From positions 1 to 42,079 of the IMG/VR virus record IMGVR_UViG_3300025518_000034: 42,079 bases of DNA; one strand, given 5' to 3'. Below, one piece after another: positions 19,877 through 29,026 of this stretch (its first letter is position 1; each line of letters starts with the position of its first letter). The notes beneath the pieces were generated by a model. That model was not told where the DNA came from. It made no database searches and saw only the letters and a list, made by a program, of their open reading frames with translations. Both the position numbers and the translations under genes were made by a program. The stretch comes from a virus (lineage: Duplodnaviria > Caudoviricetes).

Positions 19877-19939
19877 ATTTTCGGCCAAAGTGTCACCTGC
19901 TGTCACCGCCTTTTTTGTCACATCCAGAGGTGACACTTT
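19877..19939 (-). promoter_or_regulatory. Putative late promoter with TGTCAC boxes
   Basis: 12-bp inverted repeat AAAGTGTCACCT (19887-19898) / AGGTGACACTTT (19928-19939); more TGTCAC at 19901 and 19916; GTGACA-N18-GAAAAT on the minus strand. Confidence 0.55.
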
Positions 19940-19943
19940 CAGG

Positions 19944-20444
19944 TCACTCGGTCACCCACCCTTCGCGCTTGGCGTGGATCTTCGTCCAGGAGTCGTTGAG
20001 CTTTCCATTGTGAATCTCGCAGGAAGCCCGCCTGACCACGTATCCGCCGAACCCGTTGGTGGCGTGAATGTCTATGCTCAGCACTCGCTGGGCCTTGCTG
20101 ACGTTCGTATGGTAGGCACCTTGCGGGTCGCGCAACAAGGGCCGGTACCAAGCCAGACACATGTCAGCCTCGGCATCAAGCGGTGATCGAGCAGGTAGTG
20201 CCGACGGAGCAGGTGCGACTGGCTGTGGCGCCTCGGGAGCCGCTGACCCGGGTTCTGCCGCCTTTGGCGCTGCAGCTGGTGCACCGCCAAAGCTGGACGA
20301 AGGTCGAACATTCACGGTCGTTCCCTTTCCAGGACAAGCCGCGTCCTGGTAGAAGACCCGCCCATCAGGACCGGTGCACTTGTTCACCGCCCAGACTTGG
20401 CCACACACCGACAAAGCCAAAACGCCTACCCAGACTCGCATCAT
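19944..20444 (-). CDS. Secreted DUF4124-like protein (moron-like)
   Basis: Signal peptide, then VNKCTGPDGRVFYQDAAC, a Pro/Ala linker and a C-terminal domain; AT-rich upstream region with GGAGG SD. Confidence 0.8.
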   Translation of the reverse strand: MMRVWVGVLALSVCGQVWAVNKCTGPDGRVFYQDAACPGKGTTVNVRPSSSFGGAPAAAPKAAEPGSAAPEAPQPVAPAPSALPARSPLDAEADMCLAWYRPLLRDPQGAYHTNVSKAQRVLSIDIHATNGFGGYVVRRASCEIHNGKLNDSWTKIHAKREGWVTE

Positions 20445-20508
20445 GATGCCCTCCCTTCAAAATTCATTTTGTGATGGTACATCGTCGTGCGTAACTGAGA
20501 TTGCCGGT

Positions 20509-20545
20509 GTTATGCGACGGGTTCGTCGCCTAATTTGTGTTGTGC
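20509..20545 (+). other. attI-like recombination site
   Basis: GTTATGC...GGG..GTCGCCTAATTTGT-GTTGTGC resembles the attI1 layout, and its core pairs with the R'' of the next attC. Confidence 0.45.
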
Positions 20546-20546
20546 G

Positions 20547-20834
20547 TCAAAAAGGTATGCCGTCACAGTCTGGTTTGCACTTCCCGCGCGCGCCGCAGGC
20601 CGGGCATTTGTGCGGCAACCAGCGGACAAAGATGTGCCACCAGGCGCGATGCAGCGAGTCAATCGCCCGGTTGTGGCGCGTGTCGCCCACCATGTCTGAA
20701 TAGGGCACGTATTCGCTGCAGTGCATGCAGGTTGCCTCATCTGGCGGCGCTGAGTCCTGCGGGTGCTGTTCGTGACCGAACCACCAGCACCGAAGACGCA
20801 CAACTCTACGATCCATCGAACTCGCTTTGCTCAT
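20547..20834 (-). CDS. Cys/His-rich hypothetical protein (95 aa, MSKASS...), cassette 1 gene
   Basis: ATGA overlap with the upstream gene; CWWFGH, CMHC and CPAC motifs. Confidence 0.7.
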   Translation of the reverse strand: MSKASSMDRRVVRLRCWWFGHEQHPQDSAPPDEATCMHCSEYVPYSDMVGDTRHNRAIDSLHRAWWHIFVRWLPHKCPACGARGKCKPDCDGIPF

Positions 20835-20855
20835 CGCTGATCTCCGGTGTTCGGC
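20798..20855 (+). other. attC-like site (58 bp)
   Basis: R'' GCACAAC, 5 nt, L'' GATCCATC, loop, L' GCTGATC, 6 nt, R' GTTCGGC. Confidence 0.7.
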
Positions 20856-21400
20856 AATCCGGCTTCTGCCATCGCCTGCGCCAGTCCGACCCTGCGCCAC
20901 CTGACCGCGCATTCCGCCCACATCAACCGATCCGCTTGGGTAGGCGGGTAAACCTTGCTGTAGAAGGTGTATCCACCCATGCACTGGTGGCCGTGCCAGC
21001 CACCTGCGTGCGGCTCTCCGTGCAGTGCCAGGGCGGTCGATCCGTCCCCATAGCGCACAAGATCACCAGGCTTCGGGGAGAACGGGGCCTCGGGGTCTTG
21101 TGGGGCGAACATGGCTTCCCACTCGGCCATCTGGCGTTGCTTTTCGACCCCGCGCGTCCTGATTGCATGTTCATCCAGGCCGAGTGCATTGATCGTTGTG
21201 TAGCACTGCGCCACCACGTCGGCGATCTCTTTCGCCAGTGCTTCCCGGTTGCTCTCACCCGTTGCCGGGTCAACACCGTCCAGTCCTTGTATCGTGATTC
21301 GGCTGCACACCTTGGACAGCTCGGCGCACTCTTCGCCCGTCTTGCCAACTCGGCGCAATATTGCCGGGTCTGTTTCAGGCACCCATTTCGTCATAGCCAT
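20831..21400 (-). CDS. MazG-like nucleotide pyrophosphohydrolase domain protein, cassette 2 gene
   Basis: KTGEECAEL...LAKEIADV acidic motif, plus an extra C-terminal domain; SD AAAGGA. Confidence 0.75.
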   Translation of the reverse strand: MAMTKWVPETDPAILRRVGKTGEECAELSKVCSRITIQGLDGVDPATGESNREALAKEIADVVAQCYTTINALGLDEHAIRTRGVEKQRQMAEWEAMFAPQDPEAPFSPKPGDLVRYGDGSTALALHGEPHAGGWHGHQCMGGYTFYSKVYPPTQADRLMWAECAVRWRRVGLAQAMAEAGLPNTGDQR

Positions 21401-21422
21401 CTTGGTCCTTTCTGTCGGCGGT

Positions 21423-21475
21423 GCCGAACTCGTTGTTCAAGCGGACCTGTGGGCCGCTGAATGGTGGTGTTCAAT
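21423..21475 (+). other. attC-like site (53 bp)
   Basis: R'' GCCGAAC, 5 nt, L'' GTTCAAGC, GGACCTGTGGGCC, L' GCTGAAT, 6 nt, R' GTTCAAT. Confidence 0.75.
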
Positions 21476-24867: not shown

Positions 24868-25006
24868 GTGAACACCCCCCAGCAGGGCGGCCACGTACAG
24901 TGAACAGCCCGTTTGTTCGCCTACCTGTTCACTTTTCTGCCACCCAGCCACTGGCGTGCGCGCGGGGGCCGAATTACCCCCGTGGCCTTCTGCTGTGGGA
25001 GTACCT
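24868..25006 (-). promoter_or_regulatory. Putative cos packaging site (cosQ/cosN/cosB-like)
   Basis: AGGTACT (25000-25006), 17 nt, dyad CGGGGG-N8-CCCCCG (24963-24982), then GTGAACA repeats at 24868, 24900 and 24926 (inverted). Confidence 0.6.
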
Positions 25007-25148
25007 ACTGGGGGGGGCGGGCCATCGATCGAAAACAGCGGCGCTACCACAGCCGCGTCCATTGGCGCCGACCTCGATCCCATCCTCATGGCCAGCAGAT
25101 CCTCGATCCTCTTCATTGCCTTTTCCTTTTCAATAGAAAGAAGATGGA

Positions 25149-25373
25149 GTTACGCGGTTACGCGCGCGCGTAACCGTGAGACCCGCGCCGCGCCTAGCGA
25201 GTTACGCGGTTTCGCGGTTACACCCACTCGCACGCACACATGCACGCCCGCATGCGCACGCGCCCGCACGCCCGCACACGCACACATGTGAGAGAGTCGC
25301 GTAACCGCGTAACCGCGTAACTCCCCGCGTCGTTGCTGGCTTTTGCAGTTACACCCCCGCGTAACCGCGTAAC
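25149..25373. repeat. Iteron array GTTACGCG, putative replication origin
   Basis: Nine perfect and three variant octamers in both orientations directly downstream of the helicase gene. Confidence 0.8.
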
Positions 25374-25385
25374 CGTTCAGGCGGC

Positions 25386-27056
25386 TCATTCATCACCCCC
25401 TTCGTCTGTCTTTGTCCCAGGGGAGCGGGGCTCCCCCTTCCACAGGTAGGCGCTGAGGGCCTTCTCGAAAGCCTCGACCGTATTGGTGGCCCACTCTCCC
25501 TGGGTGATGCCGTTGGGTATCTCAGGCTCACACACCAGGAACATCCGCTGGGCCTTCTTCGCCCCCTCGCTCTCCAGCTTCATCACCTTCACCCGGCACG
25601 GGTTGTCCGGGTTCAGGTGCTCACTGAACCGGGTCACGGTGGGCGTCCATTGCTCACGCTTGAACGGATACCGCTCCCCAGTCCGGACGCACCACTTGAG
25701 GTAGGCCCGATAGGCCTGCTCCACACTGCAGCTGTTGAATGGCAGGTCGATCTCGCCCTCAGACCACTCAGCCAGGAACTGCTCAGGGCTCTTGCGGTTG
25801 ATCGTGATCAGCGCCCGCTTCGCCTCCGTGTAGGGCGCAGGGGCAAAGGGCTCGAAGTCATCCAGCGGGTACTGCATCAGGTAGTGCATGAATGCGGCCA
25901 CGCCCCCGTTCGCTCGCCATTCACCAAGACGCCGGTAATAGTCCGGCTCACGCGCCCTGGGCGTGTAGACGACCAGATACCGTCGATCCGAGTTGTCCAG
26001 CGCCAGCGGCTGCAGCTCGTTGGACAGGAACACGATGTTGATGTGGTTGGCCTCTTCGCGCCTGGGCAGGTTCTTCGGGTTGATCTGCACCGTGGGCGAT
26101 GTGATCAGGGCCTTGAGGCGGTTCTTGTTGTGTACCAGCTCGGCCCGACTGGACACCTCATCGCCCACCACGAACAGCTTGCACGACCGCCAGTCGTTGA
26201 ACTTGTCTTCGAGCTCATCCTGGCCCACCAGAGCACCGTACTTGCCATAGATCGACACCATGGTGTCGAACAGGAAGTTCTTTCCGGCGCCCTCATCGCC
26301 ATGCATGATGACCGAGGTCCGCAGCTTCGCGCCTGGCTTCTGCAGCGGATACGCCAGCCAGCACAGCAGCCAGTGCATGATCTGGTCGCACTCATCGGCG
26401 TTGTCGCTTGACCGGCTGGTCAGGAACCTGATGAGATCGAGCATGAGGCTGACGTCGCCTTCGACCGGCTCCATGGCCAGACCGTCAAACAGGTTGACGG
26501 TGGTCTCCGGATCTGCCTTCATGGTCGGGTCGAAGACCACATCCTGCTGACGTACCGTTCGCCGACGCTCGCTGCCCTTCCACATCCGCACCATGTCGCT
26601 GCCGTGAGCGTGCCCCATGTTGGCGATCTTCATGATCAGGCGCTCGGATCCATCCCACACGGTGTCGGTGCCATAGATCAGGACGAAGTTTTCGCAGAGG
26701 TGGTTGAACTTGCCCCAGTCGATGGTCTTTTCGGCCTTGCGGGCCTTTTCCGCTGGCTTGCCGGCACCAGATTCGGGCGCCGGAGGCTCTCCCCTATCCC
26801 CCGATGACAGCGCATTCGCTTTTTCTGGGGGAGGGGGGGACCCGGCGTGATCGGGCGCAGATGCGCCCTCCTCGACCGCGCGCCGAAGCGCTGCAGCTTC
26901 TGACAGCTGCACCACGTTGCCCGAAGCGGGAGATTCATCCAGCGGCGCTAACGCGCCGTGGGCTGGTGGCGTCGACGACGATGCCGCACTGGCGGCATCG
27001 GGTGCCTTCGGCACTGGGTCGCCGCTCTCCTCCGGCGACCTGGTTGGTTCATCCAT
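25386..27056 (-). CDS. D5-like/SF3 helicase (DUF5906-like), start MDEPTRS
   Basis: Walker A GDEGAGKN, Walker B VVGDE, motif C FLSNE and DRRY. Confidence 0.9.
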   Translation of the reverse strand: MDEPTRSPEESGDPVPKAPDAASAASSSTPPAHGALAPLDESPASGNVVQLSEAAALRRAVEEGASAPDHAGSPPPPEKANALSSGDRGEPPAPESGAGKPAEKARKAEKTIDWGKFNHLCENFVLIYGTDTVWDGSERLIMKIANMGHAHGSDMVRMWKGSERRRTVRQQDVVFDPTMKADPETTVNLFDGLAMEPVEGDVSLMLDLIRFLTSRSSDNADECDQIMHWLLCWLAYPLQKPGAKLRTSVIMHGDEGAGKNFLFDTMVSIYGKYGALVGQDELEDKFNDWRSCKLFVVGDEVSSRAELVHNKNRLKALITSPTVQINPKNLPRREEANHINIVFLSNELQPLALDNSDRRYLVVYTPRAREPDYYRRLGEWRANGGVAAFMHYLMQYPLDDFEPFAPAPYTEAKRALITINRKSPEQFLAEWSEGEIDLPFNSCSVEQAYRAYLKWCVRTGERYPFKREQWTPTVTRFSEHLNPDNPCRVKVMKLESEGAKKAQRMFLVCEPEIPNGITQGEWATNTVEAFEKALSAYLWKGEPRSPGTKTDEGGDE

Positions 27057-28113
27057 AGATCCGTCCCATCTGCTGTATGACGCCCGACAACTGGCGGCGC
27101 ACCGTGTGCAGGCCCTGCCGCTGCCTGAGGTCGTCAAAGTCCGTGTCTTTTTCTTGTCGGCTCCCCGCGTCGAACACCGGCCACACGATGTCGCAGCCGG
27201 CCACGTCCCTGGCCACCTGCTTGGCCATCGTGCGGCCCGGGTTGTTCAGCCGGCCTGTGCGCCGGTCGAATGTCATCCAGTCGTCGTCGGCGCAGATGAG
27301 CAGCCGCTTATGGGGGTAGAGGCTGCGCACCAGCGGAACCACGTGGGCCAGGTTGCCGCAGTCCCAGGCCACGAACACCGGGAACTGCTGGCCAACCCCC
27401 AGGCGAATGGACAGGCCGGTCGCGTAGCCCTCGCACACCATCACCAGCGGTGTGTCGTCATTGATGGCGCCCAGGCGCAGTGCACAGCCCGGCTTCTCGA
27501 AGCCCTTGAGGTACACCTTCGCACCGTCAGGACGAATGAACTGCAGCGCCCTGAGTGCCTCGTGCTTGGGGTAGTCATACCTGATCAGAGGCAGCACCAG
27601 GGTGCCCTCGGGCAACACCACCACGGTGTCCTTCTGGCCAGGCTCACCCGGCCAGCGCAGCGTGATCGACTTGACCAGGTAGCGGCAGCTCTCGCCCTGC
27701 AGGCCCTTGCCCTCCAGGTAGGGTGAGCGGCCCTCTTGCGACGCCTTGCGCCATAGGTCGATGGCGCTGGATCTGGCGAGTTCAGCCTCTTCCTTCGCCT
27801 TGAGCCTGGCGGCTTCGATCTGCGCCTTGCGCTCGGCCCGCTGCCGCTCGCGCTCTTGTTCGCTCAGGGGCGCCCATTCGACCTCCACCTTCTGGTACGC
27901 ACCGCCGTGGCGGTACGTGCCGAAAGAGCCGGTCAGATAGGCCCTGTTGTCCCGGGTGTGCTCATAAAGGGTGTACCAGTCCTTGCCACCCTTGCCGCAC
28001 GTCACCCGCTTGCCCAGGCGCTTGGGAAACCCGCTGTCCTTTCGGTCCTGCAGCTCGATCCCGAACGCCTCCATCTGGCGGATCACGTCGTGGTAATTCT
28101 CCCACGACGACAT
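27049..28113 (-). CDS. TOPRIM-domain DNA primase
   Basis: CEGYATGLS, ICADDD and TDFDDL motifs. Confidence 0.92.
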   Translation of the reverse strand: MSSWENYHDVIRQMEAFGIELQDRKDSGFPKRLGKRVTCGKGGKDWYTLYEHTRDNRAYLTGSFGTYRHGGAYQKVEVEWAPLSEQERERQRAERKAQIEAARLKAKEEAELARSSAIDLWRKASQEGRSPYLEGKGLQGESCRYLVKSITLRWPGEPGQKDTVVVLPEGTLVLPLIRYDYPKHEALRALQFIRPDGAKVYLKGFEKPGCALRLGAINDDTPLVMVCEGYATGLSIRLGVGQQFPVFVAWDCGNLAHVVPLVRSLYPHKRLLICADDDWMTFDRRTGRLNNPGRTMAKQVARDVAGCDIVWPVFDAGSRQEKDTDFDDLRQRQGLHTVRRQLSGVIQQMGRIYG

Positions 28114-28481
28114 CAGGGCGCGCTCCCCACCAGCACCCGGCGAAGGGCTGCGTTCTCTTCCAGGGCCAACCGCAGCCGGCGCTCGGTCTCAGACTCGACC
28201 CGGCGCATGGCGTGCAGATCCCAGCCACGGGCGTGGTTCATCCACAGCAGGGGCGCATCGTTGCCGCAGCGGTCCATCACCGCGCACAGCCGGGGCCAGA
28301 CCACACCTTCCTGACCGCTGGACCACCTTGAGAACTGCGCCTTGTCCAGCTTGAGGTCGGCCTGCAGCTGCTTGGGCTCAAGGCCGGCCAGCTCCAGGCA
28401 CAGCTCGATGGAACTGCCCAGCGAGGTCTTGCGAACCACCTCGGACGGGTTGACTTCTACGGGGATCGCCACCTGGTGCAT
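28113..28481 (-). CDS. CII-like HTH regulator
   Basis: KQLQADLKLDKAQFSRW HTH and C-terminal coiled coil; SD GAGAGG; directly upstream of the replication genes. Confidence 0.7.
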   Translation of the reverse strand: MHQVAIPVEVNPSEVVRKTSLGSSIELCLELAGLEPKQLQADLKLDKAQFSRWSSGQEGVVWPRLCAVMDRCGNDAPLLWMNHARGWDLHAMRRVESETERRLRLALEENAALRRVLVGSAP

Positions 28482-28705
28482 GGGGAGCCTCTCAAATTTG
28501 TTGAGTGGTGTTGAGAGGCTTGATCGGGCAAAAATTTTTGCCATGGACCAGCACCAACACCACCCGCAAGAAAAAACCGCCGACAGCACCCCTCACTCGG
28601 ACAGACAGGGAGGTTGGGACAGAAGGGGTACGGTCACCGCTGCAAGCGGCCACCTGGCGGAAACCAGCCGGGAAAGTGGACGGAACCCAAGCTGGACGGA
28701 CAAAG

Positions 28706-28774
28706 GGGCGGGCCTGCCCAGCCCGGTAGCATTGACGCAACCACCCATCAACACCACCTGGAAAGGACAGACCC
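28706..28774. repeat. Cassette leader copy 1 (promoter plus hairpin)
   Basis: 27 nt GGGCGGGCCTGCCCAGCCCGGTAGCAT identical to 29184-29210; ends AGGACAGACCC-ATG. Confidence 0.85.
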
Positions 28775-29026
28775 ATGAACTTCGACAACACCAACAACCC
28801 GCAGGCCCGACTGCCGCTGGACGCCGACAGCCTCAACGCGGTGGTCAACGCACTGGGGGCGGTGGTGATGTGCATGGTCAGGCGCCTGGAGCCAGAGGCC
28901 CAGCAGGCGTTCATTCGCGACTTGGCGGGCTTCGCGGCCGCCTGCGAGAAACAGGGCGACACGGTTACCGAGACCCTGCTGATCGATCTGCACCAGGGCG
29001 CGCAGAAGTTTGCAAAGGACCGCTGA
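28775..29026 (+). CDS. Small helical protein antisense to the PR operon (83 aa)
   Basis: SD GAAAGGA and upstream TAGCAT -10; natural-looking amphipathic sequence. Confidence 0.8.
   Translation: MNFDNTNNPQARLPLDADSLNAVVNALGAVVMCMVRRLEPEAQQAFIRDLAGFAAACEKQGDTVTETLLIDLHQGAQKFAKDR

Follow-up and report, generated by a model that had tools for sequence, protein, structure and literature searches.

The array that we describe here is very likely an integron platform carried by a phage that lacks an integrase of its own; it consists of an attI-like docking site and two swappable attC cassettes, with IntI likely acting in trans and transcription likely provided by the phage operon. The window, by which we mean the whole 42,079-nucleotide stretch of DNA analyzed, is an entire virus record (G000) representing a provirus that is about 60% complete, and its terminase, portal, capsid, primase, and tyrosine integrase genes are those of a lambda-like temperate phage. 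Named homologs point to Burkholderiales as the hosts. The array sits in a run of minus-strand genes, between terL with the HTH gene that follows it and a minor tail gene, and the same array is present in two other assemblies (L057 and L061). Its features are as follows.

19944..20444, minus strand: small accessory gene, not a cassette
20484..20541, plus strand: attI-like docking site, core G/TT at 20539-20541, inverted box GCCTAAT before the core, direct GTTATGC repeat at 20509
20540..20849: cassette 1, 310 bp
20547..20831, minus strand: gene 1, 94 amino acids, Cys-rich, ending in DGIPF, its stop abutting the attI core
20798..20855, plus strand: attC1, crossover 20849/20850
20831..21400, minus strand: gene 2, 189 amino acids, predicted MazG-like NTP pyrophosphohydrolase with a C-terminal domain
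20850..21469: cassette 2, 620 bp
21423..21475, plus strand: attC2, crossover 21469/21470, its right half forming the upstream phage gene's stop codon
21471..21968, minus strand: upstream phage gene, following terL and encoding an HTH motif

The HTH gene has 81 homologs and a match to PF13551 that is below the cut-off (E of 1e-5), and its position suggests a role as a late regulator. TGTCACC/GGTGACA repeats and a promoter-like site at 19880-19945, conserved in many relatives of the HTH gene, mark a probable late-promoter region. Elsewhere in the record, the primase (25386-28113) is split over two overlapping open reading frames that correspond to the two halves of phrog_2249, while its homolog in L199 is a single 800-amino-acid frame. 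In the INPHARED phages, the search recovered one match, of 86 bp and lying within gene 2, whereas gene 1 had no homolog there.

The original prediction had proposed two sites of full attC geometry at 20798-20855 and 21423-21475, each with an R'' complementary to the core of the preceding site. Every coordinate holds, and the 10-bp and 8-bp complements are exact; complements of these lengths to any upstream GTT occur for 0.9% and 2%, respectively, of the 438 AAC triplets, both real sites being counted in. In attC1, R'' (GCACAAC) is followed by 5 nt, L'' (GATCCATC), an 18-nt loop, L' (GCTGATC), 6 nt, and R' (GTTCGGC), and in attC2, R'' (GCCGAAC) is followed by 5 nt, L'' (GTTCAAGC), a 13-nt loop, L' (GCTGAAT), 6 nt, and R' (GTTCAAT). 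Both sites have the R''-L''-L'-R' hairpin with extrahelical bases; the top strand carries C at position 16 and A at position 23 in each, equivalent to the bottom-strand G16 and T23 that are described as the extrahelical bases of attC in the available parts of PMC5027507. At 53 bp and with two L-box mismatches, attC2 falls below the 57 to 141 bp given there as the attC length range.

A loose hand-made geometry scan performed at chance level, with 3 sites in the window compared to 2.64 in 100 shuffles and with attC2 below its threshold. Folding of the bottom strands of the integrated sites, proposed earlier as a check, gave z scores of 0.94 and -1.75, no better and only modestly better than shuffles. 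The circle junctions are predicted to form long hairpins, folding to -12.4 and -14.8 kcal/mol compared to -5.0 and -8.5 kcal/mol for the integrated forms, the values for the circles being without a shuffle control. Given the chance-level geometry and the weak folding of the integrated sites, we turned to a covariance model of our own, for which 43 bacterial attC sites adjoining intI were taken from the genomes of Comamonas terrae and other members of its family. With this model, whose E values are rough, the attC assignment was upheld: attC1 ranked first (31.1 bits, E of 4.7e-5) and attC2 second (18 bits, E of 0.038) in the 42 kb, and the next match had an E of 1.7. An Rfam search gave no match. 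A ribosome-binding motif in the attC spacer was found in 4 of 16 sites of a noisy set and is therefore not general.

Comparison with relatives provides direct evidence for exchange. We compared eight public runs, all as contigs, with informative breakpoints from six studies (X2, X3, X4, X6, X8, and X11), while X12 and X13 yielded short pieces only and were uninformative. The search for other cassettes at this place in relatives was successful, in that contigs of other studies break at the three G/TT cores. The first contig set has 11 loose ends inside the stretch. Seven of them are no more than 3 nt away from a core, and the other 4 lie elsewhere and derive from matches of at most 33 nt; at attC1, the breakpoints of six contigs fall at most 3 nt from the core. 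Among 13 of 15 loose ends listed for the second set, 3 are at cores (X8 at 20541 and 20848, X11 at 20849), 1 is at the left end of the attI-like site, and 9 are elsewhere, mostly from short matches.

The individual contigs illustrate what is exchanged. X4 is a 35.8-kb contig of a sister phage that follows the window sequence to 20549, continues with 2,042 other letters, and rejoins at 20846 for cassette 2, which has a single difference; at attC2 it carries about 659 extra bp with the GTT of 21469-21471 on both sides. X2 leaves the window at 20542 and rejoins at 20846 behind a different attC arm, so that cassette 1 is replaced, as it is in X4. In X3, cassette 1 stands by itself in a foreign array: the shared stretch is exactly 20539-20851, with 1 difference, and the flanks on both sides are foreign. 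Cassette 2 stands behind other attC arms in X2 and X4 and directly behind an attI variant in X6 and X8; the X6 contigs, where it immediately follows a variant of the upstream attI-like site, break at 21467 and 21471. Unit boundaries in relatives thus fall at G/TT, and the predicted units of 20540-20849 and 20850-21469 are delimited at exactly the points where relatives break, from which we conclude that they are real mobile cassettes. Excised circles and empty junctions were not seen in the contigs of the eight runs, and contigs drop rare forms.

Gene sequences carry the same imprint. The gene 2 homolog P0107 agrees with gene 2 at every residue up to and including the crossover codon but has a different tail, and other homologs vary in the tail from the same point. 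We compared 12 gene 1 loci (the window and 11 of 14 others, leaving out one duplicate and two truncated loci) and found that complementarity between R'' and the core is kept with differing sequences in 4 of them, over 10 bp in the window, L004, and L017 and over 7 bp in L012; 3 of the 12 show one side or a mismatch, and 5 have no attC trace. These data bear on the possibility that the sites are chance hairpins at ordinary phage gene junctions and that the mosaicism reflects illegitimate or short-homology recombination. Gene boundaries attract phage mosaic breakpoints, the slot is hypervariable also in relatives without attC, and, as noted, the loose geometry is no better than chance. Against this, the breaks are located at GTT and are preceded by foreign attC arms, and the complementarity survives changes at positions about 250 bp apart. 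The kept complementarity and the breakpoints at cores largely refute the chance-hairpin explanation, to which we assign a negligible probability.

Other phage contigs contain inverted attC sites in related settings. One (G001:C1, about 25000-28876; L052, 10600-14330) has a long inverted array with seven model matches plus longer sites, which includes a gene 1 cassette and runs off the contig end. L026 (2349-4246) has three strong inverted attC sites (41 to 49 bits) after its HTH gene homolog, in the same slot as in the window, and in L055 (11209-13107), four inverted attC sites surround the gene 1 homolog of G002.

The site upstream of cassette 1 resembles attI, which makes the array more than a cluster of attC sites. 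With a 12-nt matrix derived from 17 viral attI sites, its core ranked first among 883 GTT cores, but with a 40-nt ungapped matrix it was only 5th of 882, so that the likeness is modest for the copy in the window; the copy in L050, one base longer, scores 22.5 with the 40-nt matrix compared to a maximum of 6.2 in the window. The best nhmmer match to attI is at 20504-20540 with an E of 0.4. In pairwise comparisons the site scores 15.0 with L237, 11.5, 9, and 9 with viral attI sites, and at most 6 with 19 bacterial attI sites, against a background maximum of 11. We take an attI to head the array, with modest statistical likeness. The hairpin of the site also scores as a plus-strand terminator (4 found compared to 2.2 in shuffles).

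The distribution of this site is consistent with a docking point. Positions 20484-20541 recur in L001, in the same slot and beside a different inverted cassette, and in the unrelated phage L050, where they follow the final early gene, adjoin the integrase, and show the 10-bp signature; the site is also kept beside other cassettes in runs X6 and X8, and in four contigs the break is at most 10 nt from its core. A close relative heads a normally oriented cassette array in L237 (4315-5030), with no intI in the 300 bp to its left. The attI pattern was present in 0 of 401 genomes of the probable host family, and of seven metagenome matches, two were the same prophage, one was L001, and four without flanks were set aside as chance. 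Record 14 of run X8, a soil contig of high depth, has the attI-like site followed by another cassette, and some 20 nt past the other end of the site there is an ATG; the gene starting there could be intI.

The prediction that both genes are inverted was likewise confirmed: they lie on the minus strand and the attC top strands on the plus strand, an arrangement antisense to the bacterial layout and in line with the phage operon. Gene 1 has 34 homologs and shows invariant Cys pairs in alignment, and its ribosome-binding GGAG and ATG lie inside attC1, where the ribosome-binding site is predicted to be paired. It has no confident family or fold match, and structure and fold searches gave no function. 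In its DGIPF end (20547-20565 in the window), P and F are invariant in 30 aligned sequences; we take this end to resemble the C-terminal tail of SSB, of which it may be a mimic. Gene 2 matches phrog_4856 (E of 3e-16), with weaker matches to PF01503 (E of 0.024, below the cut-off) and, in Foldseek, to MazG-like folds (best E of 0.15, none with an E of 0.001 or less), and it has no PDB sequence match. The MazG-like fold is all-alpha with acidic EExxE/ExxD motifs. A role of gene 2 in nucleotide-pool control or counter-defence is our guess. The full-length gene 2 loci of two viral contigs (L003 and L214) are not cassettes.

Gene 2 has no stop within cassette 2; it reads across the crossover and ends in an ATGA overlap with gene 1, and it takes its tail from the next site. 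The missing stop, together with a gene 1 start inside attC1 that overlaps the gene 2 stop and a ribosome-binding site predicted to be paired, suggests that gene 1 is translationally coupled to gene 2.

The absence of an IntI from the record was confirmed: there is no TIGR02249 match in G000, and the phage Int, which has no NCBIfam match, is its only recombinase. Nor is an IntI encoded in six related virus records (G001-G005 and G007; most of the records are fragments), and none exceeded the cut-off in G006-G009. In the probable host family, 79 of 201 genomes have an IntI above the cut-off, and 90 of 96 cassette units are forward and 6 are inverted. Viral contigs were searched with an IntI alignment, and of 80 loci listed out of 375, 58 had enough upstream DNA, 26 of these had no unit, and 32 were informative. 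Among the matches listed, 22 of the 32 informative loci are inverted, 9 normal, and 1 tied, counts that include near-duplicates and rest on a noisy longest-ORF rule. All seven viral IntI tested pass the TIGR02249 cut-off and lie among phage genes. In a quick tree leaving out four near-duplicates, 15 of 19 IntI of inverted arrays fall on one branch (SH-aLRT of 97) that also holds two normal-called loci and one tie and contains 0 of 25 host IntI. In five of the viral loci (L212, L198, L151, L141, and L166), open reading frames upstream of intI match DNA methyltransferases, PAPS reductases, and a Mom-like protein.

The existence of phage-encoded IntI with inverted arrays means that the borrowed enzyme need not be that of the host, and we consider a host chromosomal and a phage-borne source about equally probable. 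Together with the frequency of IntI in the host family, the predominance of inverted arrays among the viral loci makes it likely that the enzyme acts in trans. A different recombinase, such as the phage tyrosine integrase or a host Xer-type enzyme, might instead move the cassettes, and the phage Int is indeed the sole recombinase of the record; we regard this as very unlikely, as the sites match a model made from IntI-linked attC, the same site heads cassettes in the unrelated phage L050, and true IntI adjoins inverted arrays elsewhere.

The array might also be a frozen relic, shuffled while intI adjoined attI and, after loss of that gene, changing only by homologous exchange of whole blocks. 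Complete phage integrons of like layout do exist with intI just past attI, attC2 is degenerate, and the core in L001 is mutated. Yet the sister phages X2 and X4 share the flank without intI, with the same accessory gene adjoining attI in the slot that intI occupies in complete phage integrons, and differ in cassette content, and the single base difference in cassette 2 of X4, combined with this flank, points to recent shuffling without an adjacent intI. Furthermore, a tblastn search with 80 viral IntI recovered no remnant in the window, the best match (E of 7e-5, 27% identity over 108 amino acids) being inside the tail gene. Genes similar to the accessory gene come after the HTH gene without attC in L002 and L022. 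We judge the relic explanation improbable and favor a platform served in trans.

In the platform reading, IntI of host chromosomal or phage origin would recombine folded bottom-strand attC by way of circles, and the terminase operon would read the array from its far end toward attI, in which case a cassette that had just docked at attI would occupy the final place in the message. The polarity of attC relative to attI is normal and only the gene within the cassette is reversed, which sets the array apart from the top-strand mis-insertion described in the available parts of PMC5027507. In the window, L001, and L050, the far end of the array meets the upstream phage gene at its stop codon, and insertion therefore spares that gene. 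Tentatively, and with more doubt than conviction, we also consider a phage cassette commons in which ordinary phage genes were made into backwards cassettes, with attC serving as the translation start, and are shuffled by a phage-specific IntI clade; non-autonomous platforms such as this one, with attI only, would draw on that pool in trans. In other phages, each of the two genes is found both with attC and without it, and if this wider reading is true, the system could expose how integron cassettes arise; genes that exist as both cassette and non-cassette offer a handle on the question of cassette origin.

These findings have several implications. Cassette exchange would account for part of phage genome mosaicism through a site-specific mechanism, and its occurrence at a platform without an integrase bears on whether CALINs are active. 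The reversed genes run counter to a published statement according to which no cassettes that face the integron promoter are seen. Being short, the sites can be used directly in standard recombination assays.

As described in the available parts of PMC4889954 and PMC5027507, integrons share with the window the attC anatomy, the extrahelical positions, the G/TT crossover in R', a top-strand attI that lies upstream of the array, and one gene per unit. A complete integron has intI next to the array and genes oriented for Pc on the attI side, whereas the array in the window has no intI and reversed genes; it departs from a complete integron in these two respects and behaves like an integron array. 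It fits the definition of a CALIN (two or more attC sites with no nearby intI; PMC4889954, from the parts available), in a record that is about 60% complete, and possible mobilization of CALINs in trans has been published in the same source. Phage CALINs have been reported as well, with 5 of 6 phage attC sites tested recombining with IntI1 (Qi et al. 2023, PMC9892861); they are alike in having two or more attC sites without intI in a phage, and the attI-like site and the swaps in relatives are what the window adds. A term search of the available text of that paper returned no mention of inverted genes, and its TJE1 array, 1 of 17 CALINs compared, has normally oriented genes. The literature searched, which omitted most subscription papers, contained no account of phage arrays whose genes are inverted, and the available parts of PMC12901181 and PMC13366799 offered nothing about this layout. 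SALINs and attG insertion (bioRxiv 10.1101/2022.09.11.507474, available in part) are similar in that the far end joins a plain GTT at a phage stop codon, but the conserved attI-like site and repeated exchange indicate a standing platform rather than a one-off insertion. The phage-borne integrons of L141-L212 also have inverted genes reading toward attI and an attI that ends in AATTnnnG/TT, but they carry intI beside attI, where the window has an unrelated accessory gene. The present case adds direct evidence that cassettes are swapped at an attI platform without an adjacent integrase.
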